Both the position numbers and the translations under genes were made by a program. The notes under the pieces are model-generated. The model was not told the origin of the DNA. It made no database searches and was given only the letters and a program-made list of their open reading frames with translations. Positions 1,811-24,168 of a DNA stretch of 32,000 nucleotides are shown piece by piece (position 1 is the first letter of the stretch; the number at the start of each line of letters is the position of its first letter). This DNA comes from Candidatus Nanobsidianus stetteri (GTDB lineage: Archaea > Nanobdellota > Nanobdellia > Nanobdellales > Nanobdellaceae): assembly GCF_003086415.1 (NCBI RefSeq), contig NZ_QEFP02000004.1, forward strand, positions 1-32,000, given 5' to 3'.

Positions 1811-1987
1811 TTATAATATATTATTTTTATATAAAGTTTCTTTTTTCATTTTTCTTCTATAATCACCCCACTTATCATCTGGAGAAAATTTTGGGGGTAT
1901 TATTCTAGATGTTTTATTACCGCAAATTGGACAGATTTCTTTAAATGTATATATTTTACAATTTTTACATTTTCTAATCTCCTTCAT
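1811..1987 (-). CDS. nop10: H/ACA RNP protein Nop10 (58 aa; absent from the supplied ORF track)
   Basis: My own translation gives MKEIRKCKNCKIYTFKEICPICGNKTSRIIPPKFSPDDKWGDYRRKMKKETLYKNNIL*. It has the Nop10 zinc ribbon (CxxC...CxxC) and the PxFSPxDK(Y/W)xxYRR signature. Its ATG (1987..1985) lies 14 nt inside the 3' end of aIF2-alpha in another frame. Confidence 0.85.
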   Translation of the reverse strand: MKEIRKCKNCKIYTFKEICPICGNKTSRIIPPKFSPDDKWGDYRRKMKKETLYKNNIL

Positions 1988-2750
1988 ATTTATTTATTTC
2001 ATAAACTATATTATAATTTTTAGCTTCTTTACTTATTAATTCTAACATTTCTTTTTCCTTTTTTTGTAGATCAGATGGGCTCGTAGTAACATATTTTAAC
2101 ATATAAGTAGGTGATCCCAAATATTTAATCATTATATTTAGATCCTTTATTTTTTTAAGAAATTCCTTTATTTTATATATTCCATCTCCATCTAAACAAT
2201 ATGCCTGCATTATATATGTAAACTCATATTTTGGTGGATTTAAATATTCAATTATATATTTATATAGTAAATCAGAATATTTTTTACTTATTTTATATTT
2301 ATCTAAAACGCTTTTTCCATTTATATAAGTTTCCAAAAATACACTATAAAGTTTATTTTCTGGAACGATTTTAAATATTATATCTTTTTCCAATTTACTC
2401 ATATCTATATTTTCCTTCTCACTCATTATTTTCAATATATTATAAGCAACCATCTCTCTTTTATATTCGAAAATCTTTGCTTTTTGTTTATTTTTGTCAA
2501 CTCTCTTTAAAGATAAAGTAACCAATCTATTTTGCTCATCTACATCAAGTACTAAACATACAATCTTTTTACCTTCTCTAACCAAAATCCTAGGATTTGT
2601 AATTCTTTTATTCGATAATTCATCTATTGGAATTATTCCATTAAAATTTTCATATTCGTCTAAGCTAACTTTTACATCTACATCCGATATATTTTTTACA
2701 GTACATATGACATAATCATTCACCTTTGGAGAATCTTTCCTCTTATACAT
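1974..2750 (-). CDS. eif2a: Translation initiation factor aIF2 alpha subunit
   Basis: 258 aa. The N-terminal S1/OB domain (PKVNDYVICTVKNISDVDVKVSLDEYENFNGIIPIDELS) is followed by helical and alpha-beta domains of the right length for aIF2-alpha. Nop10 lies immediately downstream, as in many archaea. Confidence 0.85.
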   Translation of the reverse strand: MYKRKDSPKVNDYVICTVKNISDVDVKVSLDEYENFNGIIPIDELSNKRITNPRILVREGKKIVCLVLDVDEQNRLVTLSLKRVDKNKQKAKIFEYKREMVAYNILKIMSEKENIDMSKLEKDIIFKIVPENKLYSVFLETYINGKSVLDKYKISKKYSDLLYKYIIEYLNPPKYEFTYIMQAYCLDGDGIYKIKEFLKKIKDLNIMIKYLGSPTYMLKYVTTSPSDLQKKEKEMLELISKEAKNYNIVYEINKYEGD

Positions 2751-2794: not shown

Positions 2795-3769
2795 CTAGGT
2801 TTTTGTTACTGGAATATTATATATATCTTCTTCATAACAGTTATATGAAAGATTCATTAAAACATATGCTTGTAATTCTAAATTTGAATTTAGTATATTT
2901 TGAATTTCTGGATTATTTTGTGCTAATTGTTGAATATTTATACTACATGATATTGTAGATGAATTTATTGGAACATTTTGTGTTGGTGTACATGAAAAAC
3001 CTTCCTCTCCATTTGGTATATTTATTTTATTTGCTGCAATAATATCTAATTCTGCATTTACATTAAATGTAGCCTGATTATTGGAATATACATTACTGAA
3101 GCATCCAACAGAATCTTGGAAAGCTATTGAAAAATATACATTTCCATTAGTTTCATTCACATTAATATTAGAATATTCTGGTGTTATTGGGGATGATGAA
3201 TAATATACAGGTTCAGTTAATGTTATCTGACTATTAGAATAATTTAATTGTAATGGAATTAATATATTAGTAACAACATTTGATATATTATATTCTACAA
3301 CTATTGGTATTTGAGTTGGTACTGCTTGAAGACCTGGACTCAGAGAAACTTCAATATTTCCAATGGTAGAATTTGAAGGAATAAGTTGATTAGAAGAAGA
3401 ATTATAAATTGCTGGTTCTGCATTAAAATTACCTGAGTAAGGAGAAGATAAAGCATAACTATAAATATAATATGAAACTTCTAATTGGGAATTTGACATT
3501 GTATAAATATTGTTAACATAAATAATGGGTAATTCATAATTTAAACCATTTGATTCACTATAATTTAATGAGGAAGGAGCTTGAACATATAAATATATAT
3601 TTCCAGGTTGATTTAATGCCCAGGAAGGTTGGTATAAATTAGAATTTCCACTATTAAAGAATCCAGAATTTCCAGATCCAATATTACCAATTGGACATGT
3701 AGAAAAATAAAATAGAGTAGTACCTGCAAATAATATTGGTAACATATATATAAATCTTCCAGACTTCAT
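2795..3769 (-). CDS. Exported/surface protein, N/S/Y-rich, many N-x-S/T sequons (function unknown)
   Basis: The N-terminus MKSGRFIYMLPILFAGTTLFYFSTC is a short basic head, a hydrophobic core and then a Cys (possible lipobox-like FSTC). The mature part is almost free of Lys/Arg and carries sequons NYS, NSS, NST, NIS, NET, NLS. It has 5 Cys. Confidence 0.6.
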   Translation of the reverse strand: MKSGRFIYMLPILFAGTTLFYFSTCPIGNIGSGNSGFFNSGNSNLYQPSWALNQPGNIYLYVQAPSSLNYSESNGLNYELPIIYVNNIYTMSNSQLEVSYYIYSYALSSPYSGNFNAEPAIYNSSSNQLIPSNSTIGNIEVSLSPGLQAVPTQIPIVVEYNISNVVTNILIPLQLNYSNSQITLTEPVYYSSSPITPEYSNINVNETNGNVYFSIAFQDSVGCFSNVYSNNQATFNVNAELDIIAANKINIPNGEEGFSCTPTQNVPINSSTISCSINIQQLAQNNPEIQNILNSNLELQAYVLMNLSYNCYEEDIYNIPVTKT

Positions 3770-3813
3770 TAATTATATATTTATTTTATCAATTAAAAAT
3801 TTTTGTGATAATA

Positions 3814-4086
3814 TTAACTTGATGTATTTGTATTATTTTGATTACTAGATGTATTTGTATTATTTAAGTTAATATTTCCATTTAATGCATTTTGAACAGT
3901 ATTATAGGCTTGCTGACTTTCATTGATAAATTGCATTGTACTATTTTTGATATTTTGAAAAATTGTATTATTTTCTAAATATCCAAGGATTTGATTGTGA
4001 TATAAATAGGCTACTACTATTAAAATTATTAGAATTAATAAAAAGATCACCCCACTTCCAGAGCTTTTAACTCCTCTCTTCTTCAT
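3814..4086 (-). CDS. Small membrane-anchored/exported protein with an Asn/Thr/Ser-rich tail
   Basis: 90 aa. MKKRGVKSSGSGVIFLLILIILIVVAYLY is a basic head plus one hydrophobic helix. The C-terminus carries sequons (NNT, NST, NES) and a duplicated NNTNTSS unit. Confidence 0.5.
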   Translation of the reverse strand: MKKRGVKSSGSGVIFLLILIILIVVAYLYHNQILGYLENNTIFQNIKNSTMQFINESQQAYNTVQNALNGNINLNNTNTSSNQNNTNTSS

Positions 4087-4118
4087 AAAGCAATTATAAA
4101 TTTCTTTATTTATAAATT

Positions 4119-5171
4119 TTAAGATATTTGTAAATAATCTATCTCAAGATAATTATCTGTCTTTATTTCTAATAGATTCTCTGGCAATAGACAATTATAT
4201 ATATTTATTGCATAAGCACCTACGGATGAACTTATATTGTATATGCAATTATTATTTAGTATAACTTCTCCAGATCCTTGACCAACTATAATATCTAATA
4301 TATAATTTGTTAAATTATTTGGAAATGCTATATAAAATATGTTACTCTTTGATTCTATATATAGATTATTTATATTAACTGGATATGATGATACTAAACT
4401 AATACTATTTTCTCCAACATTTAAATATGGAGTTAAATAAAATAAACCAGAACAAGAAGATAAAGGAATTGATAACCCATTTACAATTAATTCTACATTT
4501 TGAGGAGAATATGGACAAAAATCATAAAACATATATACATCTCCAGATATATAATAATAATTAAAATTTAATGATGAAAACTTTAGATAATTTACATTTA
4601 TATTATTCAATACACCATTTCCATTGAATATTATACTAGATGGGGAAAATTCTATTTTTAACTCATTATCACCATTATATAGATAATTTGGAGGGACAAA
4701 AATACTTATTTCACCATTTTGACATCCAGAATATAATTCATAATTATTTACGTATATATTAAAGTTTCCATTGTTACATGTAGAATAAGCAGTAATATTT
4801 ATTCCGTTATAATTATTGGAATAATAAAAATATAATGTCTTACTAACTGTTCCATAAAATATATTTGTTTCAAAATTTAAAGTTCCTAAATTAATATAAT
4901 ATACTGGCGTATAGATTCCTATTGTATAATTACTTGCTATATAATAATAATTTTGGCTTTTTGATAATTGTATATTTTGAAAAACATATTGATTACTAAT
5001 ATTTGTATATGAAGAATTTGAAGAAGAAGACAATGTTATATTAGTTCCATTAATTAATTGTTGTATTAAATATTGTTTATATTGATATGGAAGAATTGCC
5101 CAGTATACAAAAATTATTATACCCAGTAATATGAAGAATATACCCAAACCTGTTGTTTGCAATTTTTTCAT
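4119..5171 (-). CDS. Exported/surface protein, N/S/Y-rich, many N-x-S/T sequons (function unknown)
   Basis: 350 aa. The N-terminus is MKKLQTTGLGIFFILLGIIIFVYWAIL. I see no Arg at all and few Lys. Sequons include NGT, NIT, NSS, NIS, NYT, NLT. It has 6 Cys. The composition is completely unlike the K/E-rich cytosolic proteins nearby. Confidence 0.6.
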   Translation of the reverse strand: MKKLQTTGLGIFFILLGIIIFVYWAILPYQYKQYLIQQLINGTNITLSSSSNSSYTNISNQYVFQNIQLSKSQNYYYIASNYTIGIYTPVYYINLGTLNFETNIFYGTVSKTLYFYYSNNYNGINITAYSTCNNGNFNIYVNNYELYSGCQNGEISIFVPPNYLYNGDNELKIEFSPSSIIFNGNGVLNNINVNYLKFSSLNFNYYYISGDVYMFYDFCPYSPQNVELIVNGLSIPLSSCSGLFYLTPYLNVGENSISLVSSYPVNINNLYIESKSNIFYIAFPNNLTNYILDIIVGQGSGEVILNNNCIYNISSSVGAYAINIYNCLLPENLLEIKTDNYLEIDYLQIS

Positions 5172-5195: not shown

Positions 5196-6212
5196 TTATA
5201 TTTTATACCTTAATTTTCCAACAATACAAAATCTATCAATTAATTCGAAATTATTGACATTATTATTAACAAAATATATTTCCGCATCTATTTTATCAAG
5301 AATATTAAATAAATTTATAATTTTATCAATATTATTTTCTTCTTTCATTTTTTTAAAGCATTCTTCAGAAATTAAAACATATTCTATATTATTATACATT
5401 GCATTATTATATACATCATCATATCCAAATGCTACCATGTTTTTTTGTATTAAATATAATATTTCTTCAATTAATTTATTTATTTCTAAAATTTCTAAAT
5501 TTTTTAATGTTTCATAATATTCTGTTCTCCTAACAAATTCATATATACCATTTACACCTCCGTTAGACACTTTATATATTTTTATATTTTTTATATTTAA
5601 TTTATCCTTTATATAATCATAAAATTCTTCAGGATAAAATAATGGACCAATTATACATAGAAATTTAATATTATAATCTCTTAATGCATTTAAAAATTCT
5701 GAAAATATTTTATATAATTTTGCTTTTTCTTCTGGGTCTCCCTTATTTATCTTATAATATTCTTCTTTTATAATTTTTATCCCATTATTTATTATACCTA
5801 AAGCTATTTCATTACTATCTATAGATATTACAAAAATATCTTCCTTTTTTCTAGAAGATTTTTCCAATATCTTTTCTTCATATTTCTTTATCTCTTCCTT
5901 TTTATATAATGTAAATTCTGTAGATATTCTTATATCAAATGTATGATAATGGCCAATAGAATCTTTATCATTTGAATCAATTATTTTTCCAGAAATCCTT
6001 AGCGAATCTCTATATTCGGAAAATTTAATATTTTCAACTTCTATTTTTATCCTTATTTTTTTCTTTTCTTTCTCATTCTCAAATTTTAATGTTCTATAAT
6101 CATATCCTTCTATTATATCCCCAACATTAACTATTTTATACAAATATAATAAATCTACTTCATCTTCCACCCTAATTTTTATTGTTTTCTTATCTATTAT
6201 TTCATATTTCAT
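5196..6212 (-). CDS. pelA: Pelota (Dom34-like mRNA surveillance / ribosome rescue factor)
   Basis: 338 aa. The N-terminal Sm-like domain (MKYEIIDKKTIKIRVEDEVDLLYLYKIVNVGDII) is followed by aRF1-like central and C-terminal domains (GGVNGIYE...). It aligns by eye with archaeal Pelota. Confidence 0.8.
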   Translation of the reverse strand: MKYEIIDKKTIKIRVEDEVDLLYLYKIVNVGDIIEGYDYRTLKFENEKEKKKIRIKIEVENIKFSEYRDSLRISGKIIDSNDKDSIGHYHTFDIRISTEFTLYKKEEIKKYEEKILEKSSRKKEDIFVISIDSNEIALGIINNGIKIIKEEYYKINKGDPEEKAKLYKIFSEFLNALRDYNIKFLCIIGPLFYPEEFYDYIKDKLNIKNIKIYKVSNGGVNGIYEFVRRTEYYETLKNLEILEINKLIEEILYLIQKNMVAFGYDDVYNNAMYNNIEYVLISEECFKKMKEENNIDKIINLFNILDKIDAEIYFVNNNVNNFELIDRFCIVGKLRYKI

Positions 6213-7192
6213 ATTAGTAATAATATTAAAGAAAGAAATATTGGAGGAATAAATGGCGCCCCTTCCTTTACTTTTACTTTTATATCATTATATTCTCCCA
6301 ATTTTTTTAATATATTTATTTCTTCTTTTGAAAGACCAAATCTTCCAATAAACAATTTATTCTGGAATATATGATAAAATATTATGATAAATGGCATAGA
6401 ATAATAAAAGAAAATTTCATTTAAAAAATAAAATATCAATGGTAGAATTACAATAAATAAGATAATAATAGAATTTATTAATTTATTATTGCTCTTAAAT
6501 TTCAATATATACTTATTTTCATTTTCAAAAATATCAAAATATTTTATCAATATTTCTTTATCTTCCTTTTTTATATTATTAACTTCTATTCCATCTTCTA
6601 TCCAATCTCCCTCAACCAATTCATTTACATTTCTTATAAATGTTAGTTTTTCTTCCAGATCTTTTGATATATATCTAAATAGAAAATATGGTATATATAC
6701 AAAAATTAGAGAAATTAATAGATAATAAATGTTAAAATATAATATGAAAAGGTTGATAAAATATATAGAGATCAATATTAATACAATATTAAAGATAGAA
6801 ATATAATATTTTTTTCTATTTTCTTTATATATTTTGATAGCCTCTATATTGTGAAATATAAATCCAAATAATACTAGATAAAATAAAAATAATAACATCT
6901 TATATGGAGAAAAAAATGATAATAGAAAGAATATTGAAAAGAAAATATACAAATCTCCAATGGCCAATAATCTAAATAAATATAGTAATACAAAAAATAA
7001 AAGAATAAGATATGAAAATATAAGATTTTCTGAGTAAATATTTTGAATAATTAAGTATAAAAAATAAAATACATTAAATATTAATAAAATATATATTATT
7101 ATATCATCTACAGATTTGTATTTTATATCCTGGTACGATGAATATAATAATATTATCATATCAAATATCAATAAAGGGAGTATTTCATTCAT
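6209..7192 (-). CDS. A24-family aspartic membrane protease (prepilin/preflagellin peptidase-like) with extra domains
   Basis: A polytopic membrane protein. It has the first catalytic-Asp motif YQDIKYKSVDD near the N-terminus, the second GxGD-like motif LLAIGDLYIF, and a C-terminal EGAPFIPP resembling the PFGP motif of PilD/FlaK. Its stop overlaps the pelota start (ATGA at 6209-6212). Confidence 0.6.
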   Translation of the reverse strand: MNEILPLLIFDMIILLYSSYQDIKYKSVDDIIIYILLIFNVFYFLYLIIQNIYSENLIFSYLILLFFVLLYLFRLLAIGDLYIFFSIFFLLSFFSPYKMLLFLFYLVLFGFIFHNIEAIKIYKENRKKYYISIFNIVLILISIYFINLFILYFNIYYLLISLIFVYIPYFLFRYISKDLEEKLTFIRNVNELVEGDWIEDGIEVNNIKKEDKEILIKYFDIFENENKYILKFKSNNKLINSIIILFIVILPLIFYFLNEIFFYYSMPFIIIFYHIFQNKLFIGRFGLSKEEINILKKLGEYNDIKVKVKEGAPFIPPIFLSLILLLI

Positions 7193-7310: not shown

Positions 7311-7667
7311 ATGCCATTAATAATACCATCTCCAGAATATGCTAAAAGAAGGAAAATATTACAGATTAATAACAAAATTAAAAAATTGGAAAAAGATAGG
7401 ACTGGAAAGATAACTTTAGTATTAAAAAAGGAAATAGATCTAAACAATCTCAATGAATCATTAAAATTTATATCTATGTTAAAAGAATTGGAGGGAAGAA
7501 ATTTCTTTGACGAATTATATATTGTTAAATCCGATAGAGTATTTGATTATTTAGATATAGAAAGAGGATTAGACCAAAAAAGTATAGAAAAAGAAAAATT
7601 AATAAAATTGTATAATATAATAAGTAGGTTCTCAAATATAATAGATAAAATTAAAAAAATCTATTAG
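7311..7667 (+). CDS. Hypothetical protein (118 aa)
   Basis: An isolated plus-strand ORF inside a long minus-strand block, with K/E/I-rich composition and no recognisable motif. Its 3' end overlaps the convergent coiled-coil gene by 4 nt. Confidence 0.45.
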   Translation: MPLIIPSPEYAKRRKILQINNKIKKLEKDRTGKITLVLKKEIDLNNLNESLKFISMLKELEGRNFFDELYIVKSDRVFDYLDIERGLDQKSIEKEKLIKLYNIISRFSNIIDKIKKIY

Positions 7668-8827
7668 TATTTATATTCTTTTTCTACTTTTATATTTTTA
7701 GATAATAATAATCTCTTTATATTTTCTATATCATTCTCTATTATTTTTATTTTTTCTATTTCATTTATTATATATTCAAAGTTGGTCAAATCAATAAAAT
7801 TCTCTATTTTCTTTATTTTATTCATTAAATTTTCATAATCTGATAATACAGATTCCAATATATCTTTAGAATCATATAATTCTACTTTTATCTTTCTAAT
7901 TTCTTCTTTAATATTATTTAGACCTTCCTCCAATTTGTTATATTTTTCATTAAGCTCTTCTATTTTATCTATATCATTTACTTTTGATCTTAAATCTACA
8001 ACCAAATTATTTAATTCTTCAAATAATGCATATATACTATTTAATCTATTTTCGAAATTTACATATTTGTTATATAATTCTTCATAAGCCTTAAATTGTT
8101 TTATATTTTTAATATCATCGTTTGTTAATTGTAATAAGTAATTCATATTACTTATTTTATTATTAATTTCAGAATATTTTTCTTCATATTTCTTTTCTAT
8201 CTCTTCCAATTTACTATTAACATTATATAGATCTTTTTCCCTTATCTCGCTTATCATTTCAGATATTTTATTGTACTGTAATAGATCTTTAGATAAATTA
8301 TCTAGTGTTTTGGATAATAAATTTGTTAAATTATCTACTTTTAGTTTTAAATCATTAAAATCATTAATATTTTTATACGAATCTTCTATTTTATTTAACT
8401 TATCAGTTAAATCTTCTATTTTATTTCTTAAATCTTTTACGCTATTTATAACATCTTCATATTTTGTTATTTTATTACTTAAAGAATTTATATCGAGCTC
8501 TAATTTATTTATCTTTGATTTTACATTTACTATAGCAGAATAATCAACAAAATTTTTCTGATTATTTTCTAATACATCTACTCTTAGTTTTAAATCGTTT
8601 AAATATCTTACTTTATCCAATAAATCTTCATTTAATATTTCCTTATAATTATTTAATATTTTTTCTACATTTTCTAATTCTTCTTTCAAAGCTTTTAATT
8701 GATTATTGAATTCTTCCCTACTTACAAAATTATTCAAGTTTCTTTTTATTTCTAATATCTTATTGTTAAAATTTTTTACATATGAAAAAAATTCATCTAT
8801 TATATCTACATTTTTATTTAAATCCAT
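7664..8827 (-). CDS. Long coiled-coil protein (387 aa), function unknown
   Basis: Heptad-like N/K/E/L/I sequence runs throughout, with no TM segment and no Walker motifs. It has internal repeats (NDLKLRVDVLEN / NDLKLKVDNLTN; NKIEDLTDKLNKIEDS) that are also visible as DNA repeats. Confidence 0.6.
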   Translation of the reverse strand: MDLNKNVDIIDEFFSYVKNFNNKILEIKRNLNNFVSREEFNNQLKALKEELENVEKILNNYKEILNEDLLDKVRYLNDLKLRVDVLENNQKNFVDYSAIVNVKSKINKLELDINSLSNKITKYEDVINSVKDLRNKIEDLTDKLNKIEDSYKNINDFNDLKLKVDNLTNLLSKTLDNLSKDLLQYNKISEMISEIREKDLYNVNSKLEEIEKKYEEKYSEINNKISNMNYLLQLTNDDIKNIKQFKAYEELYNKYVNFENRLNSIYALFEELNNLVVDLRSKVNDIDKIEELNEKYNKLEEGLNNIKEEIRKIKVELYDSKDILESVLSDYENLMNKIKKIENFIDLTNFEYIINEIEKIKIIENDIENIKRLLLSKNIKVEKEYKY

Positions 8828-8858
8828 AAACTATTATTTATAATAAATTTTATTAAAC

Positions 8859-9179
8859 TTACCAAATACTTTTTAATAATTCCTTTCTTATGTCATCAAT
8901 TTCTTTCTTTATCATATCATATTTTAATTCTAAATTATATAACCTCTTTTTAATATCATCTATGTCTTTGAGTTTTAAGTTTATTTCTAATAAAATTATT
9001 TTTAATTCATCCAATAATTTATTGTATTCATTATTTTTATCAAAAATATTTTTTAATTTTAAATATTTATCATAAATCTCTTCTTTTATTTTTTTATTTT
9101 TTTCCAATTCTTCTTTTAAATTCTTAATTTTATTTTCTAGATCTTCTATAATTTTTTCATATTCGCTTATTTCATCCAT
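8859..9179 (-). CDS. Small coiled-coil protein (106 aa), translationally coupled to PolB
   Basis: Its ATG at 9179..9177 lies within AATGGATGA, where the PolB frame reads AAT GGA TGA (an 8-nt overlap). The sequence is entirely heptad-like (IEDLENKIKNLKEELEKNKKIKEEI...). Confidence 0.55.
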   Translation of the reverse strand: MDEISEYEKIIEDLENKIKNLKEELEKNKKIKEEIYDKYLKLKNIFDKNNEYNKLLDELKIILLEINLKLKDIDDIKKRLYNLELKYDMIKKEIDDIRKELLKSIW

Positions 9180-11592
9180 TTTTAAAAAATGATAATATAT
9201 CTTTTTGAGCTTTTCCTATATTTTCTATAGATATATTTAATGCCCTTAGTATTGGTTCTATAGCCGGTAAGACTTGTTTATATATATAATATTCGGGATC
9301 ATATTCATTATCTTTAACTTCATCTAATATCCTAACTTTATCAGAAATTTTTTCCCCACCTTTTGCTATAATATATTCGACTATAAATCCTCTTCTAACA
9401 TCATAGCCCCTTTCCTTATATTTTTTTGCTGCTATAATATGAGGAGCAGTAACTTCATATTCTGATGGATCTTTTCTTAATTGTTCTCTTAATATAAATT
9501 TCTCTTTGGGATAAACATGATATCTTATATTTTTAATAACTTCAGACAAATAATTATTTATTTCTTTTATTTTTCCTTCTAATGCTAATTTAATTACCTT
9601 TTCCTGAACCTCTCCAGCAATTTCTGACCAATCCCTTCTAACAACTTCAAAACCTCTCAATTTAATATTTCCATTTTCAGATAATAATGCATATTTTTTT
9701 CTAGCACCACCTTCTCCAGATCTTTTTTCTACAAATATTCCTGATATATAATAATCTTCAAATTCCATTTCCAATGGTTTTGGTAAAATATTATTTATTT
9801 TATTTAATAAATTTAGAGCATTTTCTTTATTATCTACAATAACAAATATAGAATCTGTATCTCCATATAATATTTTATATCCATTTTTTTCAATAAAATC
9901 TTTTACTTCTAATATATGTTTTCTACCTAGAGCAGTTACTGAAGCTGCACATTCTAAACAATACCATCTAGAATTTGGAAATCCCAAATAACCATATGTA
10001 GAATTTATTATATATTTTAATGCTGTTTGCCTACTATCAATTATTTTATATTCTTCAGAATTCTTATCTAAACCTTTTAAAGCTTTCTTTAAATTTGCCC
10101 TTTCTTCAAACACTTTTTCTAATACTGTAGATATAAATCCTTTTTTCTTTTTACAATACCATACTTCAGATTTTCCTAGACTTGTTTCAATATTTATTTT
10201 ATCCTTCATACATTCTTCATGTTCACATTTCAATGTATCTGGAGAAATATTATATCTAATTATTATTGATGGATATAGAGATCTAAAATCAAAAACCGCA
10301 ATATTTTTATACAAACCCGGTTTTGGTTCTAGTACAATAGCACCAGTGTATGTTACTCTTTTTCTATTATTTACTTCATTTGGATCCGGTCTGTTTGGTA
10401 TTATTTCATTAAATTCTTTTGCCCTTTTTATTAGATAATTTTCTACAAGAATTCCATATGTACTTCCTGATAATTCATATAAAGTAATTCCAACCAATCT
10501 CGCCAATTCTAATAAAATTCCTTCAAAATGTTTATATAATCTATAAGTTAATTCTACATCTTTTCTATTATATTCTATTAGATAATTGAAATCTTTTTTA
10601 TTATAAATTATATCTGACATTTTATCCAAATTCATGTCCAATTTTCCTTCTCCCAATATTTCCATAGCAACTTCATCTAAAGAATATGTTTCAGAATTTA
10701 ACTGAGGTGCAAATATTGTTGTAACAATATCATATAAATCTACATTTTGTATTCCAACTATTCTATATTTTTTATCTTCTTCTCTTTTTTTAGTATATAT
10801 TATTCCTTTTCCATCCCATCCAAAATCAAAATTAAATCCCAATCTTTTTGCTTTCTCATATAAAAAATATAAATCAAAATTATTAGAATTATATCCAACA
10901 ATTACATCTGGATCTAAACTTTTAACTATTTCATTAAATTTTTTTAATAATTCTAATTCACTATTTACTTTTATTCCATCATTTGCTTCTCCTCCCCAAT
11001 ATATTGAATAATATTTTTGCCCATCATATATTGAGATAATATAAATATTTGCCTTTTCTGGTGATATTATGGATTTATTAGAAGCTGTTTCTATATCAAA
11101 TGCTATAACCTTTAATTTATATTTATTTTCAACAATTCCGTTATTTTTCTTTAATTTGTAATAATCTATATTATCTCCTTTCTTTATTAATTCTAATTCC
11201 AAATCATATGTATATAACGGATATATATCATTATCTATTTGAAACTTTTTTATTATACTAATATCCCCCTCTTTTTTTCCAATTATTTTTCCTTCCTCCT
11301 TCAATTTATCAGCAAAGTTTTTTATTTTATCATAATCATCCTGATTCAAATAAACTTTTATTACATTATATTCTTTTCCTATAAAATTTTTCTTTGAAAT
11401 TTCAAAATTTTTTACATATTTTTCATCTTTCAATTTATTCTTTATTTCTTCTAAATATTTTTCGTCCTTTAATATTAAATATACATAAAATGGTTGATCA
11501 TATTCTATTCTTACTTTTTTTCCATTTTCATCCCTCCCATAAATATAAATTTTTTCTTTATCATGATCAAAATCTAATACAAATATTTTCAT
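9172..11592 (-). CDS. polB: Family B DNA polymerase (contiguous, no intein)
   Basis: 806 aa. Exonuclease motifs are present (AFDIETA; YNSNNFDLYFL; YNRKDVELTY) along with polymerase motifs A DFRSLYPSII, B KYIINSTYGYLG and C YGDTDS. The C-terminus QKDILSFF is a canonical PIP box (QxxIxxFF). Confidence 0.95.
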   Translation of the reverse strand: MKIFVLDFDHDKEKIYIYGRDENGKKVRIEYDQPFYVYLILKDEKYLEEIKNKLKDEKYVKNFEISKKNFIGKEYNVIKVYLNQDDYDKIKNFADKLKEEGKIIGKKEGDISIIKKFQIDNDIYPLYTYDLELELIKKGDNIDYYKLKKNNGIVENKYKLKVIAFDIETASNKSIISPEKANIYIISIYDGQKYYSIYWGGEANDGIKVNSELELLKKFNEIVKSLDPDVIVGYNSNNFDLYFLYEKAKRLGFNFDFGWDGKGIIYTKKREEDKKYRIVGIQNVDLYDIVTTIFAPQLNSETYSLDEVAMEILGEGKLDMNLDKMSDIIYNKKDFNYLIEYNRKDVELTYRLYKHFEGILLELARLVGITLYELSGSTYGILVENYLIKRAKEFNEIIPNRPDPNEVNNRKRVTYTGAIVLEPKPGLYKNIAVFDFRSLYPSIIIRYNISPDTLKCEHEECMKDKINIETSLGKSEVWYCKKKKGFISTVLEKVFEERANLKKALKGLDKNSEEYKIIDSRQTALKYIINSTYGYLGFPNSRWYCLECAASVTALGRKHILEVKDFIEKNGYKILYGDTDSIFVIVDNKENALNLLNKINNILPKPLEMEFEDYYISGIFVEKRSGEGGARKKYALLSENGNIKLRGFEVVRRDWSEIAGEVQEKVIKLALEGKIKEINNYLSEVIKNIRYHVYPKEKFILREQLRKDPSEYEVTAPHIIAAKKYKERGYDVRRGFIVEYIIAKGGEKISDKVRILDEVKDNEYDPEYYIYKQVLPAIEPILRALNISIENIGKAQKDILSFFKNG

Positions 11593-13071: not shown

Positions 13072-14241
13072 TTATTGATTATAATTCTTTAAAACATGAT
13101 TTAAGAAAAAGAAAGAAATTCCTAAAATGATAAATGACAAAAACAATCCATATTGAACTGAAATATAATAAAGTAATAAAGATCCTATTGTACCACCCAA
13201 ATTTCTAAATAAATATATATTTCCAAATTTTTGTGGATAATTTAATATTATATAATTATCAAAGAAATATTGAAACATTGTCCATGAAAATGCGGCTAAT
13301 ATAAATAATATTAATAGTATTATAGCATTATATATTTTTGATAAAGATAATATTAGGGACAATAATATTATGATACCTATTAAAAATCTAGAAAGTATTC
13401 CTATTTTTATTTTTCTAAAATCAATTTCCCTTTTATATATCTTATATAATATTGATGTATATAATCCATTTATAAATAATAAAAATGGAAAAATTATAGA
13501 TAAAGAAAATATATTTACGGAATAAACTAAAGATGTCCAGACTAATGAAAATCCAATCAAGACAAATAAATTATATAATTCTAAATATCCTATTCTCAAC
13601 TTTTTTATATTCAGTGGAAATATTAAACCTTCAAATATAGGATATAGAGCCCCAAATCTATCTATATTATTTTCTGCAACTGAAAACATTTTATCAATTT
13701 TTTCCAATAAATTTAATTCATATGCTGATGAGAATAAGAATAAATATAATTTCCTATACATTATAACTATTATGGACAATAATAAAATAATGGAAACTAT
13801 ATATATGTTATAAATTATGGAAAGAAAAAGAAGAGAAATTTGTGGTATTATTTCTCCAAAAGTCCAATAAATATTAAAATGAAAATTTAAACTCACATCC
13901 TTATAATATAATAAAAATGAAAAGTATGTAGATGAATATGTAATAGTAAATAATAAAAATGATAATATTAATAGATAAATATTTGGATAAAATAATAATA
14001 TAGAAGATAAAAGAGGTCCTATTACGCCAATCATAGCAATATTAATATAATTTTTCTCATTTATTTTAATATTTCCAAATATTGCAGAACTTATTATTGA
14101 TCCTATATAAGATATAGCAACTAAAGAATAATATACACTAGATGAAAAATTAAAATAATATGGATAAACAAAAAATAAACTATTTAACATTCCTCCAACT
14201 AAATTATTACTAATTATAATAATTTTTTCTTTATAGTTCAT
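13072..14241 (-). CDS. Polytopic membrane protein (possibly MFS-like transporter)
   Basis: 389 aa with roughly 10-12 hydrophobic segments. The resemblance to MFS topology is only loose and I found no clean signature motif. Confidence 0.4.
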   Translation of the reverse strand: MNYKEKIIIISNNLVGGMLNSLFFVYPYYFNFSSSVYYSLVAISYIGSIISSAIFGNIKINEKNYINIAMIGVIGPLLSSILLFYPNIYLLILSFLLFTITYSSTYFSFLLYYKDVSLNFHFNIYWTFGEIIPQISLLFLSIIYNIYIVSIILLLSIIVIMYRKLYLFLFSSAYELNLLEKIDKMFSVAENNIDRFGALYPIFEGLIFPLNIKKLRIGYLELYNLFVLIGFSLVWTSLVYSVNIFSLSIIFPFLLFINGLYTSILYKIYKREIDFRKIKIGILSRFLIGIIILLSLILSLSKIYNAIILLILFILAAFSWTMFQYFFDNYIILNYPQKFGNIYLFRNLGGTIGSLLLYYISVQYGLFLSFIILGISFFFLNHVLKNYNQ

Positions 14242-14858
14242 TTTATTATTTCTCTAATTTTTTCTTTTAATATATCTCCTAATGCTATACCTATAGCAAT
14301 TGAAATAGATATAACTATTCCGCCAAAAAGTATTATGAACATATAGAGAAGAACTGGAGATAGTATATTTAAATAACTAAGCGTTAACACTAATATAAAA
14401 AATAAAACAATAAATCTTATTGAACCTAATATAAAGTTTACATACTTAAAATTCTGGATTGCTGGATATAAAAAAGATCTCAATATAAATTCCATCATTG
14501 CATACGAAATTATTATTACTATTATTATTATTAGTAAACTGTTTAATATATTAAAAATAATAGTTCCTATATTACTAACATACGGAATTATATAAAATGA
14601 AAATCCAATAAAATAAAAGTATATAAAGAACTTAGTTATATTTACTATTAGATCTGTAAGAGAATATGTTGTCATTATTTGTTTATCATGCAACCATCTA
14701 TCGAGACCAAGAACTTTTTTCAATATTATTTTAAGTATTAATGCTATAAGTTTTCCTATAAAGTATCCAATTATTATAATAGAAATAGAAATTAATATTA
14801 TTTTTAATATATTATAGTTAAATATTTGAAGTATTTGATTGGTAATATTTTCCAGCAT
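14238..14858 (-). CDS. Membrane protein with TM-helix repeats (MscS-N-terminal-like), function unknown
   Basis: 206 aa with several TM segments. The pattern GYFIGKLIALILKIILKKVLGLDRWL and the C-terminal GIALGDILKEKIREI resemble the conserved TM helix repeat. Its stop overlaps the downstream start (ATGA at 14238-14241). Confidence 0.4.
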   Translation of the reverse strand: MLENITNQILQIFNYNILKIILISISIIIIGYFIGKLIALILKIILKKVLGLDRWLHDKQIMTTYSLTDLIVNITKFFIYFYFIGFSFYIIPYVSNIGTIIFNILNSLLIIIIVIIISYAMMEFILRSFLYPAIQNFKYVNFILGSIRFIVLFFILVLTLSYLNILSPVLLYMFIILFGGIVISISIAIGIALGDILKEKIREIIK

Positions 14859-17071: not shown

Positions 17072-18385
17072 ATGCGCAATTATATGTCTTGTCTAGATGA
17101 AAAAAGTTATGATGATTATTTTCAATGTATTAGAAATTGTGTAAATTATAAGAATTCATTTGAAGGAGCTTCATATATTATAAAAACTAATTCAGGAACG
17201 GAAGCAATAAAAAAAGAGGAAATATTTTATAGCATTTATGGACCTATAATATTAAACTATCACAGTTTAGCATTTCTTAGTAAAACTTATAGATTAAAAT
17301 TAGAATATCCTTATTTACCAGAAAATTCACAACTTATAGTATCATTAAAGAAGAAAAATAAAACTGTAGAATATATTATAGATATCGGAAAAAGAAGAGA
17401 AGATATACATTTCGATGCTGATTTGAGAACAAAACTCCCTGAATCTATTTTATTAACAAATTTAGAAGATCCTGAAGATATTAAAAAATTGATAGAAGCC
17501 AGACCATATGGTTTTAAAACAAAAAGAGATATAGAAAAATTAAAGAATGCTTTAGCTAAAAGATATATCGATATTTTTTATGCTCCATTATCTTTATCAC
17601 TAATATTACCACTTAAAAATCAAGAATATTTTCCAAATATATATTATATAAGTAAACCTTATACAATAAGTACTCCTTATGTATTTGAAATATTACTTGG
17701 AACTTGGGATATTATCAAGGTACCTAAAAAATTATATACTTATAAGTTGAATTTTCTTTCAATTATAGGATTTGAGAGATCTCCTACAATGGTGCCTCAT
17801 TTAGTAGATCTGAATCCTTACTTTGAATTGAATCGAAAAAATCTCAATAAATTTGAAATACAAATAAAGTATGATGAGTTTCAAAATAGATTTTATAATT
17901 TTATGACTGAAACTCTAAAAGTAATTTCGATTTTAAAGTTTTCTCCAGCGGATATAGGACCACAACAGATGGTAATGAAGAACGGTAGGGTTATATTTAT
18001 AGATATTGCATCCGGAAATGATATAGCAATAAGTCAAAAAGGATTAGAAAAAATCATAGTTGAAGCTACTAAAGATATCATAGAAGGAATTGAAAACTCT
18101 CCATTATTAAAACATTGTATAAAGAAAGAAAATTATGTTATTTGTAATGAAAAAATAAAAGAGTCTGAATTGTCTAAAATGTTAGTTGCAGATATAAGAA
18201 GATCTTTAATAGAAAATCTTAATTATAATAGAACTTATAACTTAGATAATTTACTTAAGAATATTAAAATTGGTGATCATAGATTAGATGATATAATTAT
18301 ACAATATAAAGATGATGAATTTGAAGAAAATAGAGAAATTGTATTAGGAGCATTAAAATTATACTTAGGAAGTCTTACTAATTAG
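17072..18385 (+). CDS. Hypothetical protein (437 aa), weak protein-kinase-like motif
   Basis: I recognise no clear family. The segment FSPADIGPQQMVMKNGRVIFIDIASG loosely resembles a kinase catalytic loop plus metal-binding IDxx motif (HxDLxPxN ... IDF). Confidence 0.5.
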   Translation: MRNYMSCLDEKSYDDYFQCIRNCVNYKNSFEGASYIIKTNSGTEAIKKEEIFYSIYGPIILNYHSLAFLSKTYRLKLEYPYLPENSQLIVSLKKKNKTVEYIIDIGKRREDIHFDADLRTKLPESILLTNLEDPEDIKKLIEARPYGFKTKRDIEKLKNALAKRYIDIFYAPLSLSLILPLKNQEYFPNIYYISKPYTISTPYVFEILLGTWDIIKVPKKLYTYKLNFLSIIGFERSPTMVPHLVDLNPYFELNRKNLNKFEIQIKYDEFQNRFYNFMTETLKVISILKFSPADIGPQQMVMKNGRVIFIDIASGNDIAISQKGLEKIIVEATKDIIEGIENSPLLKHCIKKENYVICNEKIKESELSKMLVADIRRSLIENLNYNRTYNLDNLLKNIKIGDHRLDDIIIQYKDDEFEENREIVLGALKLYLGSLTN

Positions 18386-18415: not shown

Positions 18416-18832
18416 ATGAATAATATAGATATAATAAAGGAATTTTTGTATACTCTTTTACTATTATTTTCTGTAGAAACATTTTTAGACTTAATATCAT
18501 TTATTATATATCCATCAATTTTTCCAAATTATGTTAATATTTCTGTTGAAATTTTCTTATTTATAATTTTTTTATTATCAATATTTTCAATTTATTTAAT
18601 AAGAGAAGATAATTTATATGGTTATATAATTTCATTATTTATATCAATATTAATTTTGTTTTCGGCTTTTACATTAAATTCTAATAATATAATAGATATA
18701 GCAGTAAGAAATGTAGCATCTAATTATGGTATATATCCAAATCCAATAATATTGTTTTTCGGTATTTCAATATTTTTAATAAGTATAAGAAAAATAATTC
18801 AATTAAGAAAAACTAAAATTTCTTCAACTTAG
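18416..18832 (+). CDS. Small integral membrane protein (138 aa)
   Basis: About four hydrophobic segments and no recognisable motif. The last 20 nt overlap the 3' end of convergent rpoN. Confidence 0.45.
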
Positions 18833-22581: not shown

Positions 22582-22656
22582 TGCCCCCGAGGGGATTCGA
22601 ACCCCCGATCTCCAGGACCGAAGCCCGGAATGTTGTCCTGGCTACACTACGGGGGC
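22582..22656 (-). tRNA. tRNA-Arg (anticodon UCG)
   Basis: The reverse complement is GCCCCCGTAGTGTAGCCAGGACAACATTCCGGGCTTCGGTCCTGGAGATCGGGGGTTCGAATCCCCTCGGGGGCA. The acceptor is GCCCCCG/CGGGGGC, the anticodon loop is CT-TCG-GT and the T loop is TTCGAAT. Its first 15 nt overlap the 3' end of the upstream CDS. Confidence 0.9.
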
Positions 22657-24168
22657 TTTATTACATATTATTTTTTTATATGAATTAAAATATTCATCAA
22701 AATATTGATCAAATGTATAATTTATATTATATTTCTTTGCTATTTTATTATATATATCTATTAATCTTTTTGGATAATTTTTATCCGGAATTGAATTAGT
22801 CAATTTATGATATTCAAATATCTTAGAAAATCTTTTTTCTCTTTTTACATTTAATCCAATATTTTCAACATTATCTACATTATTTACTTCATAAGTTGAT
22901 TCAAATTTTCCAAAATTAAATCCCGAATATTCAACTGGATTCATTACATTCATTAAATAATCTGAAAAATATTTATCATATATTAAATTTGGTAAAAACA
23001 ATCCTAAAGAAATATATGGATTAAATACTGCAGAACTTTTATTATTAAATGGAATATAAACTGAGATATCATTTAAATCAAATAAATTAGAAATATATCT
23101 TATATCTTTTCCCAATATTGATAATTCTCCATATGCATCTTTTTCTATTAAATATTTTGCAATATTATAATTTATTTCTGAAGATTTATCTAAATTATTA
23201 AAATCAAATAATGATTTATTTAAATCTTTAATTGATATTTTTCCAATATATAACCCTTCTAGAATTATTCCTAAAATATATCCTAAATATAATGTATCTA
23301 AACCATATCTATTTGATAATTCAATTAAATCTCTTATATATTCCTCATTTAATATTCCCAAAAATGGTCCTAAAATATTAAAAGGTTCATATGGGTATTC
23401 TTTCTTTAAATTATTAACTAAAGGGTAAATATAATCATCAAATATCTTCTCATTTTCTTCCTCAGATAAATATATATTTTTATAATTTAAAATTGGAATT
23501 TTATCTGGTATAGATTGATAAAAATCCCTTATTGATTCTCTTCCTTCTTCTATTAATTCTATATCTAATCTTTTATTTTCAATTTTATTATCTCCTCCAA
23601 TTGATAAACCAGATATATTATGATATCTATATAATACAGATCCAATTCCACCTTTTGTAACTTTTATTTTATTATTTTCAAATATAATTAAATTTCCATA
23701 TATTGTAAATTTTGATCCCAATCCATTTAATAAAATAATAAAATCTTTTCCACCATATATATCTTTTAAAGTATTGTATAACTCTTCTTTTCTTTTATAT
23801 ATATCTTCAGATATATCGTTTTCTAAAAATATAACATTATCATTTTCTATAATTAGAAAATATTTTTTATCAGATTTTCCATATAAAACTATTATATCAT
23901 TACCCGTTAATTTAATATACTTACCAAAAGAGGATAAATTAATATCTAGAGAACCTGTTATTGGAGATCTATAAATAATTAATGAATTTATATTATCTTT
24001 ATTTTTTTGATGTCCAACAGAAAATATTGTTAAATTGTTTTCAAATGGTTCCTTTTCATATGTTTTATAATCAAAATGTAAATCAATTGAATGATCCAAT
24101 GTTTTTGAATCAGTTACATAATTTCTTGATTCTTTTTTATACAAATCTATAAACAATACCCTAATCAT
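22642..24168 (-). CDS. Aldehyde:ferredoxin oxidoreductase (AOR)-family homologue lacking the Fe-S cysteines; function unknown
   Basis: 508 aa. Aligned by eye to Pyrococcus AOR: [9 protein letters not shown] vs [36 protein letters not shown] vs [50 protein letters not shown] vs RGGVGAVMGSKNLKAIAVEG, and [15 protein letters not shown]...LSNRYGLDT vs PEYESVWALGANLGI...CDELGLDT. The CxxCxxxC cluster motif is absent, and the only Cys is six residues from the C-terminus. Confidence 0.55.
   Translation of the reverse strand: [508 protein letters not shown]

Follow-up and report, generated by a model that had tools for sequence, protein, structure and literature searches.

The stretch analyzed here, referred to below as the window, comprises 32,000 nucleotides (nt) at positions 1 to 32,000 (forward strand) of contig NZ_QEFP02000004.1 of the archaeon Candidatus Nanobsidianus stetteri (assembly GCF_003086415.1), and the subject is a block of three consecutive minus-strand open reading frames (ORFs) of 350, 90 and 324 amino acids (aa), whose products are termed A350, B90 and C324 (genes A, B and C) and which lie between the genes for pelota and aIF2-alpha (Table 1). 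A previous examination limited to the letters and their ORF translations (the sequence-only reading) had described three exported proteins, each beginning with a basic head followed by a hydrophobic segment, within a string of housekeeping genes; the ORFs are present with the N-termini described, and a family scan identified the neighbors as the A24-like peptidase, pelota, aIF2-alpha, Nop10 and PAC2. A350 shares 96 % identity with a Candidatus Nanobsidianus stetteri Nst1 protein; for proteins from Nanopusillus metagenome-assembled genomes the figure is 83-93 %. In the published table of Nanopusillus acidilobi, the orthologues Nps_02075, Nps_02070 and Nps_02065 (Nst1_411, 410 and 409) are labelled uncharacterized (secreted or membrane), with a single membrane segment each and no arCOG.

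The gaps separating aIF2-alpha, C, B, A and pelota measure 44, 44, 32 and 24 nt and each contain TATA-like strings, as a G+C content of 22 % predicts. Since the A24-like peptidase gene overlaps the pelota start codon by 4 nt and aIF2-alpha overlaps Nop10 by 14 nt (1974-1987), the flanking housekeeping genes are tightly packed; in contrast, each surface-protein gene has an A+T-rich gap of 24-44 nt upstream. The G+C content of the block (0.22-0.25) is the same as that of the window (~22 %), and no integrase, repeats or tRNA were seen at its borders.

Table 1. Genes of the block, its boundaries and the segments of A350 and C324 (window coordinates).
Feature	Coordinates	Strand	Description
Gene A (A350)	4119..5171	minus	350-aa ORF; predicted bitopic surface protein, conserved core of the cassette
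Gene B (B90)	3814..4086	minus	90-aa ORF; membrane helix and ~60-residue sequon-rich tail
Gene C (C324)	2795..3769	minus	324-aa ORF; predicted exported protein, all-beta body, putatively lipobox-derived N-terminus
Pelota	5196..6212	minus	upstream cassette boundary; eRF1_1 E 2.9e-20
aIF2-alpha	1974..2750	minus	downstream cassette boundary; EIF_2_alpha E 4.8e-17
A24-like (prepilin-type) membrane peptidase	6209..7192	minus	327 aa; Peptidase_A24 E 2.7e-4, under the Pfam cut-off
A350 residues 1-28	5088..5171	minus	MKKLQ head and membrane helix (residues 2-26 in the model); Q5, G10, F12, F13, G17, Y23, W24, L27 and P28 invariant (8 homologues)
A350 residues 41-59	4995..5051	minus	sequon-rich disordered stalk (NGTNITLSSSSNSSYTNIS); pLDDT <50 at 42-57
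A350 residues 60-350	4122..4994	minus	all-beta ectodomain with three jelly-roll-like repeats (DSSP on the model)
C324 residues 1-25	3695..3769	minus	signal peptide MKSGRFIYMLPILFAGTTLFYFSTC ending in Cys25 (codon 3695-3697)
C324 residues 26-47	3629..3694	minus	G/S/N-rich flexible linker; model pLDDT <50 for 1-44

The sequence-only reading took the block to be inserted between pelota and aIF2-alpha and proposed a comparison of synteny in related genomes; that comparison reverses the claim, as the same genes occupy the same position out to a pelota that is 37 % identical. The order A24-like peptidase, pelota, A, B, C, aIF2-alpha, Nop10 and PAC2 is found in all Nanopusillus loci, and in syntenic relatives (loci L013, L014, L015, L018 and L020) the cassette is larger, comprising A, B, C, D and sometimes E before aIF2-alpha. 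Specifically, Nanopusillaceae KM4331-08 (L014; pelota 68 % identical to that of the window) carries A349, B408, C327 and D292; L015 (49 %) carries A349, B416, C320 and D288; L020 (47 %) carries A346, B414, C318 and D285; and L018 (37 %) carries A356, B449, C343, D311 and E352. YN1 (68 %) retains A347 and a 168-aa B only, C and D being lost, and in the clade of the window B is cut to 90-124 aa and D is lost. The presence of the same genes at the same site in distant relatives implies that the block is ancestral there and that the state seen in the window is a reduced one, i.e., the cassette is being reduced rather than gained. It appears to be specific to the Nanopusillaceae and their syntenic nanoarchaeal relatives, always between pelota and aIF2-alpha.

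A profile search of 1.84 billion representative proteins recovered 14 full-length A homologues (E<1e-30) plus, at E 9e-8 to 9e-5, four remote homologues 389-392 aa long, and a search of a 5.8-billion-protein collection with a broad A alignment added one member. One remote homologue of 392 aa (locus L016, 6879-9179) lies divergently beside pelota and two genes from PAC2 in an archaeal lineage of 26 % G+C, whose pelota is 27 % identical to that of the window and whose A homologue bears a canonical KGQ class III-like head; the pelota linkage may thus be much older than the Nanopusillaceae. Another (L017) sits after topoisomerase VI and not beside pelota, and no B homologue was found beside the remote A homologues in L016 or L017.

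The three genes are genuine, and purifying selection acts on them. In comparisons with five relatives, the ratio of nonsynonymous to synonymous substitution rates (dN/dS) is 0.10-0.21 for A, 0.14-0.34 for C and 0.21-0.41 for B, as compared to 0.03-0.18 for pelota, aIF2-alpha, PAC2, PolB, Nop10 and the A24-like peptidase, and the A, B and C ORFs are intact in every locus examined. These values, well under 1, indicate functional genes that evolve somewhat faster than their neighbors. In a published survey, nanoarchaeal proteins classed as "hypothetical external" showed a raised density of nonsynonymous single-nucleotide polymorphisms (PMC6142677).

After its MKKLQ head, A350 reads GLGIFFILLGIIIFVYWAILP, with a hydrophobic window at residue 3 and a hydrophobic helix at residues 8-27 (GLGIFFILLGIIIFVYWAIL), and the N-terminal 28 residues are among the best conserved of the family. 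In the AlphaFold2 model (mean predicted local distance difference test, pLDDT, of 83), a helix spanning residues 2-42 is followed by a disordered stalk (42-57) and an all-beta part with a pLDDT of ~90. The latter comprises three repeats that are detectable by hhalign (E 3e-5 between the first and the second, E 4e-4 between the second and the third), share the sequence logic "x-I-x-V-N-G ... I ... Y-L-x-x-G-x-N-x-I" and contain one conserved Cys pair each (C132/C150, C219/C240 and C309/C327; Cys codons verified). Foldseek places the model among the jelly rolls of GH35 beta-galactosidases, alpha-L-rhamnosidase, BcsB and the SIDT ectodomain (E 4e-6 to 1e-3), and one remote A homologue (P0057) has a weak, sub-threshold match to the NCBIfam rhamnoside_JR model. 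The three repeats would be of the same fold class as the jelly-roll or galactose-binding-domain-like modules associated with glycoside hydrolases; A350 shows no significant sequence homology to these modules and, unlike them, lacks a catalytic partner domain, has a Cys staple in each repeat and would be held in the membrane by its N-terminal helix. In the ectodomain, the positions invariant across 16 homologues are Gly, Cys, Pro, Tyr, Phe and Asn, with no invariant Asp, Glu or His, which makes an enzyme unlikely. A and C were also considered as paralogues, and this was rejected (BLASTP E = 1).

The head of A350 partly resembles a class III (type IV pilin-like) signal peptide. In every A homologue with a complete N-terminus, a [KR]-x-Q head stands directly before the helix; Q5 is invariant in A, and no distant homologue whose N-terminus is complete lacks this Gln. 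Two class III traits are found in A350, namely an uninterrupted, conserved hydrophobic helix of ~20 residues and a Gln at +1 as in EppA substrates, and a third, a basic residue at -2 together with Gly/Ala(/Ser) at -1, is lacking. The -1 residue of the nanoarchaeal A members is L, Y, S, N, T or H, which breaks the known rule, and the FlaFind-type class III pattern used here ([KRDE][GA][ALIFQMVED][ILMVTAS][ILMVTAS]) is absent from A350 (K-L|Q-T-T), B90, C324 and all nanoarchaeal A homologues. At this place the four remote A homologues have KGQ, RGQ or RAQ, and the pattern fits P0057 and P0059 (both KGQAA) among them. These features make a pilin ancestry of A plausible. Additionally, an A24-like peptidase lies upstream of pelota in all syntenic loci, two genes upstream of A in the window. 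It has seven predicted membrane segments, its D30 and I78-G79-D80 are invariant in four orthologues, and a hydrophobic insertion of ~45 residues is missing from the L018 and L020 orthologues; the orthologues match Arc_PepC_II weakly, and a sequence search of the PDB gave no match. No PilB/ArlI or PilC/ArlJ genes were found in the cassette or its flanks, and the sole T2SSE match in the window is weak and falls in a generic AAA ATPase.

B90 is truncated. A hidden Markov model covering the N-terminal ~90 aligned positions of the long B proteins matches B90 with an E of 2.3e-9 (next window ORF, 0.057). The long orthologues have 408-449 aa, and both B90 and the 168-aa B of YN1 stop just past the shared motif, so that the ~330-residue Cys-rich globular part is missing; the C-terminus of B90 is a low-complexity N/T/S tail. 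B90 is, by this comparison, the truncated orthologue of a 408-449 aa ectoprotein. The B of YN1 (L004, 11046-11552) is cut at the same point as those of the Nanopusillus/Nanobsidianus clade, and L014 keeps 408 aa; should L014 be more closely related to one of the two clades than these are to one another, the truncation would have arisen twice. The pattern looks like a parallel reduction in YN1 and in the clade of the window, which would imply that the B stub has a function of its own. The ORF call of the YN1 B shows an odd Tyr-rich N-terminal extension, and its start may be mis-called.

C324 combines a putative signal peptide of unusual invariance with a beta body. Its orthologue in L015 is L015_C320 (E 1e-18), and this protein links it to L020_C318 (E 1e-11). 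Among 19 sequences, L10, P11, G16, T17, L19-S23, C25 and P26 are invariant, Cys25 being kept down to 44 % identity, and the motif LPILFxGTTLFYFS[ST]C is present in 30 of 34 homologues. As in a lipoprotein, the invariant Cys follows the hydrophobic region (h-region) and precedes a flexible linker. Canonical LAGC occurs in four of the five C/D/E proteins of L018 and L020 (L020_C318 and the D/E proteins), with FAGC in L018_C343, and we infer that Cys25 may be the remnant of such a canonical lipobox, whose sequence would have drifted to FSTC. DPANN archaea are predicted to contain many lipobox proteins, and the candidate lipidation enzyme AliA is predicted there "with some gaps" (PMC12462473). C324 resembles the haloarchaeal and euryarchaeal lipobox proteins that depend on AliA/AliB (PMC12462473) in its basic n-region, h-region, Cys, linker and ectodomain, and differs from them in its off-pattern box (FSTC/FSSC) and in the unusual invariance of the whole signal peptide. 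The AlphaFold2 model of C324 (predicted template-modeling score 0.75; pLDDT ~90 or above over most of 51-324) is all-beta, with weak fold matches to tandem immunoglobulin-like sandwiches, and the five Cys comprise Cys25 and four further invariant ones that could form two disulfides.

The idea that "GTTLFYFS[ST]C" might be a general sorting signal of the lineage found no support in a metagenome DNA-pattern scan, which returned 39 loci: the 37 that could be read all encode C324 orthologues, so that the motif belongs to this one gene family. The pattern was too narrow to probe the broader idea. In L014, C (327 aa, 8308-9291) and D (292 aa, 9281-10159) have near-identical signal peptides (LPIFLLGTTLFYFSSC) and mature parts in which no similarity was detected, which suggests either recognition of the whole segment or gene conversion.

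The composition of the three proteins is as the sequence-only reading had described it, namely rich in N/S/Y/I, free of Arg in A350, and with 6 and 5 Cys in the two large proteins. A350 contains 2.6 % K, 0.0 % R, 14.9 % N, 10.6 % S, 12.0 % Y and 12.6 % I, and C324 contains 0.9 % K, 0.3 % R, 14.8 % N and 13.3 % S; B90 has 5.6 % K+R, 20 % N and no Cys. No other of the 34 window ORFs has as little K+R (1.2-5.6 % in these three, vs 12-31 % for soluble and 5.8-10 % for polytopic membrane proteins) or as high a density of N-glycosylation sequons (2.3-7.8 per 100 aa, vs 0-1.7). The earlier description of the proteins as dense in sequons thus holds within the window, with the qualification that in A350 and C324 the counts are those that composition predicts; B90 alone exceeds the shuffled expectation (7 sequons vs 3.2 +/- 1.4). 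The 8, 7 and 8 sequons of A350, B90 and C324 all lie past the membrane or signal segment, and several are conserved in position: N41 and N81 in 8/8 A homologues, N44 and N125 in 7/8, and N161 and N306 in 19/19 C homologues, down to 44-58 % identity.

The charge depletion is a lineage-specific property of the exported proteins. In the ectodomains of the A family, K+R amounts to 1.3-4.2 % (~2 % in the lineage of the window) and D+E to 5-7 % in the clade of the window and its nearest relatives, as opposed to 9-13 % and 8-12 %, respectively, in distant members, and the B, C and D proteins follow the same trend. Since the cytosolic proteins of the same A+T-rich genome are K/E-rich, the composition of the block is not an effect of base composition, in agreement with the sequence-only reading, which had excluded a mere A+T bias. 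Its further proposal, that low-basic exoproteins are an acidophile trait, gains support from the lineage-specific loss of charge at the level of a supposition. N. acidilobi grows at pH 3.6 and 82 C, and its cell surface binds the lectin wheat germ agglutinin (PMC4935971); the low-charge profile is consistent with this growth regime and with lectin-detectable surface glycans. Similar to charge-poor, N-glycan-rich envelope proteins of thermoacidophilic archaea, such as those of the Sulfolobales surface (S)-layer and the N. acidilobi S-layer protein Nps760, the three proteins are very low in K/R, high in N/S/T, sequon-rich and invisible to tryptic proteomics, but they are much smaller than S-layer proteins and would be anchored directly in or at the membrane. 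An identity as the S-layer protein itself was rejected, as A350 and C324 have only 324-350 aa and the predicted N. acidilobi S-layer gene is Nps760, located elsewhere.

In line with the sequence-only reading, which had recognized no family for any of the three, scans of Pfam, NCBIfam and PHROG with the three proteins and with the long B, C, D and E orthologues returned nothing at or near cut-off. The sole PHROG match is the membrane helix of B90 (E 0.004), and profile searches matched a fucosidase and malectin-like domains non-significantly (E 0.19-0.5). On present evidence, the proteins constitute a new uncharacterized family within an ordinary class, that of envelope glycoproteins confined to a lineage, rather than a novel type of system.

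Collectively, the block is probably a reduced nanoarchaeal envelope cassette that encodes a helix-anchored triple jelly-roll glycoprotein, a membrane stub and a Cys-anchored beta-sandwich glycoprotein, which together would form a structural or adhesive, possibly glycan-binding, module located at the S-layer or beneath it. The N-terminus of A350 would remain in the cytoplasm, with the conserved pilin-like helix holding the protein in the membrane and the three disulfide-stapled jelly-roll repeats displayed on a glycosylated stalk; this use of a pilin-derived helix as a signal anchor is the interpretation preferred here over A24 cleavage. C324 would be exported via Sec, processed and probably lipid-anchored at the invariant Cys25, from which the linker would lead to the beta-sandwich body, and B90 would retain the membrane helix and stalk of a once-large ectoprotein, presumably as the membrane partner of A. 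All three may be N-glycosylated and stripped of charged residues as an adaptation to hot acid, and A, B and C together could constitute a non-enzymatic module between the membrane and the S-layer. The jelly rolls of A, being of the glycoside hydrolase type, point to glycan binding as the most likely activity, whether the target is the cell's own envelope or that of the host. For these proteins, a surface location and glycosylation are well-supported suppositions and acid adaptation a reasonable one, and the earlier claim of exported, N-glycosylated surface proteins stands in that form; a function in host contact, which had also been raised, is speculative.

Several observations weigh against the envelope cassette as formulated above. 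Profile searches of the PDB that started from the A and C alignments returned no significant match, and the Foldseek matches of A350 are generic in fold, with template-modeling (TM) scores <=0.25. The sequon counts of A350 (8, vs 7.5 +/- 2.4 after shuffling) and C324 (8, vs 8.4 +/- 2.5) are those expected by chance. The C324 box, F-S-T-C or F-S-S-C, fails the strict lipobox pattern ([LVI][ASTVI][GAS]C) at -3 and -1, which leaves room for cleavage by signal peptidase I or for an anchor that stays uncleaved. The connection between charge depletion and acidity is conjectural, and expression, location, cleavage, lipidation and glycosylation are predictions from genes and models. Additionally, Nps_02065-02075 were not detected in the N. 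acidilobi proteome. As for this last point, tryptic digestion would yield no peptides of 7-30 aa from C324 or B90 and three from A350, one of which is the membrane helix, so that for C324 and B90 the missing signal is uninformative. Absence from expression data, which the sequence-only reading had named as grounds for giving up the surface interpretation, is thus inapplicable where tryptic proteomics is blind. Likewise, the K/R-poor S-layer protein of N. acidilobi escaped tryptic proteomics (PMC4935971).

Among the alternatives, the one closest to this interpretation holds that A350 is a genuine type IV pilin-like protein, cut before Gln5 by an A24/EppA-like peptidase and assembled into a pilus- or bindosome-like structure, in which case the cassette would be a filament-tip or pseudopilus adhesin module and not a set of simply anchored proteins. 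A350 is like the EppA-processed type IV pilins of Methanococcus maripaludis, and like class III-signal surface proteins such as the sugar-binding proteins of the Sulfolobus bindosome, in its short basic head, its Gln at the equivalent of +1, its uninterrupted ~21-residue helix and the A24-family peptidase gene nearby. As in bindosome substrate-binding proteins, a large globular domain comes after the helix. The [KR]-x-Q head followed by the hydrophobic helix in every complete A homologue, the conservation of this helix among the best of the protein, the KGQ/RGQ/RAQ heads of the most distant homologues and the linkage of the peptidase, with its invariant Asp30 and GD80, to the cassette in all syntenic loci all favor this possibility. 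In agreement with it, EppA processing in Methanococcus strictly requires the +1 Gln (PMC4390842), and two type IV pilus systems plus an archaellum have been reported in Nanoarchaeota (PMC6142677). Nevertheless, the -1 residue is wrong in all nanoarchaeal members and their heads fail the FlaFind-type pattern; A350 has no DUF361 or Flp-type Pfam match at cut-off; the cassette contains no linked assembly ATPase or platform gene; and a disordered stalk separates the helix from the globular part, on which the helix of a pilin would be packed. Moreover, the peptidase-pelota linkage is perhaps just inherited synteny, and the Peptidase_A24 match is under the Pfam cut-off. The -1 violation, the lack of linked assembly genes and the unpilin-like stalk together place A24 cleavage below the signal-anchor reading, and we regard it as unlikely. 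A more elaborate version, which we find quite improbable, envisages a hitherto unrecognized, DPANN-rooted surface machine in which a pilin-derived A, cut before the invariant Gln by the co-localized, divergent A24/EppA-like peptidase of relaxed -1 specificity, nucleates a membrane complex with the B helix and Cys-anchored C, D and E under the S-layer, the lineage-specific truncation or loss of B, C and D tracking host switching. If true, the cassette would be a determinant of host recognition or docking in nanoarchaeal ectosymbiosis.

The fold matches of A350 to beta-galactosidase, alpha-L-rhamnosidase and BcsB jelly rolls, together with the weak rhamnoside_JR match of P0057 and the non-significant fucosidase and malectin-like profiles, could also point to A350 and C324 as secreted or surface carbohydrate-active enzymes, or accessory modules, that attack or harvest host envelope glycans. 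This is very unlikely, given that every match is weak or under cut-off, that only accessory-type beta-sandwiches and no catalytic domain are present, and that the ectodomain lacks an invariant Asp, Glu or His. The truncation of B (90-124 aa in the clade, 168 aa in YN1), the loss of D, and of both C and D in YN1, the faster evolution of A, B and C and the low-complexity tail of B90 would suit decaying or dispensable leftovers of genome reduction, whose composition reflects drift under A+T pressure. Such a decay is scarcely credible in view of the dN/dS of 0.10-0.41 against five relatives for all three genes, the intact ORFs, the invariant Cys, sequons and signal peptide, the confident structure models and the K/E-rich cytosolic proteins of the same A+T-rich genome. 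Least probable of all, to the point of being nearly dismissed, is a recently acquired foreign or viral insertion encoding virion or mobile-element glycoproteins: viral capsid and tail proteins often have jelly-roll folds, BFVD matches reach an E of 4e-7 and the composition is sharply unlike that of the flanking genes, but the TM-scores of the BFVD matches are <=0.24, no PHROG match is significant, the block does not differ from the window in G+C content, its borders carry no integrase, repeats or tRNA, and the divergence of A parallels that of its housekeeping neighbors. Above all, an insertion is contradicted by synteny, i.e., by the same genes at the same site down to 37 % pelota identity and by the L016 A homologue beside pelota.

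The envelope cassette bears on the question of how nanoarchaea recognize, hold and feed on their hosts, for which it supplies candidate proteins, and previous nanoarchaeal studies have called for work on conserved predicted membrane proteins (PMC4935971). Three anonymous ORFs become a family-level cassette with a universally retained core, A, and variable accessories, B-E; the cassette gives a concrete model of topology and processing and accounts for the invisibility of these proteins to tryptic proteomics. The loci form a natural comparative series that runs from the full cassette through A, B stub and C to A and B stub only. The LAGC lipoboxes of the relatives constitute sequence-level evidence for Cys-anchored proteins in the nanoarchaeal envelope, and C324 would be an example of a lipobox drifting from the canonical pattern.

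Outside the block, two proteins without a Pfam match lie on the plus strand of the window, one of 437 aa, soluble, with 5 Cys (17072-18385) and one of 138 aa with four membrane segments (18416-18832). A pair of overlapping polytopic membrane proteins of 389 and 206 aa on the minus strand (13072-14241 and 14238-14858), also without a Pfam match, is kept beside RtcB in Nanopusillus and YN1; in the N. acidilobi table, the counterpart of the former is an uncharacterized membrane protein with 12 segments and that of the latter an uncharacterized conserved membrane protein with 5 segments (arCOG01572). A 508-aa protein (22642-24168, minus strand) has weak, partial matches to the N- and C-terminal domains of aldehyde:ferredoxin oxidoreductase (E 1e-7 and 3.5e-5) and, in a genome almost without energy metabolism, may be degenerate or repurposed. 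Finally, a 387-aa predicted coiled-coil protein (7664-8827, minus strand) with 15 % Asn, 36 % charged residues and 0.3 % Gly gives spurious coiled-coil Pfam matches, and its orthologue in N. acidilobi, annotated as "chromosome segregation ATPase", was detected in the proteome.

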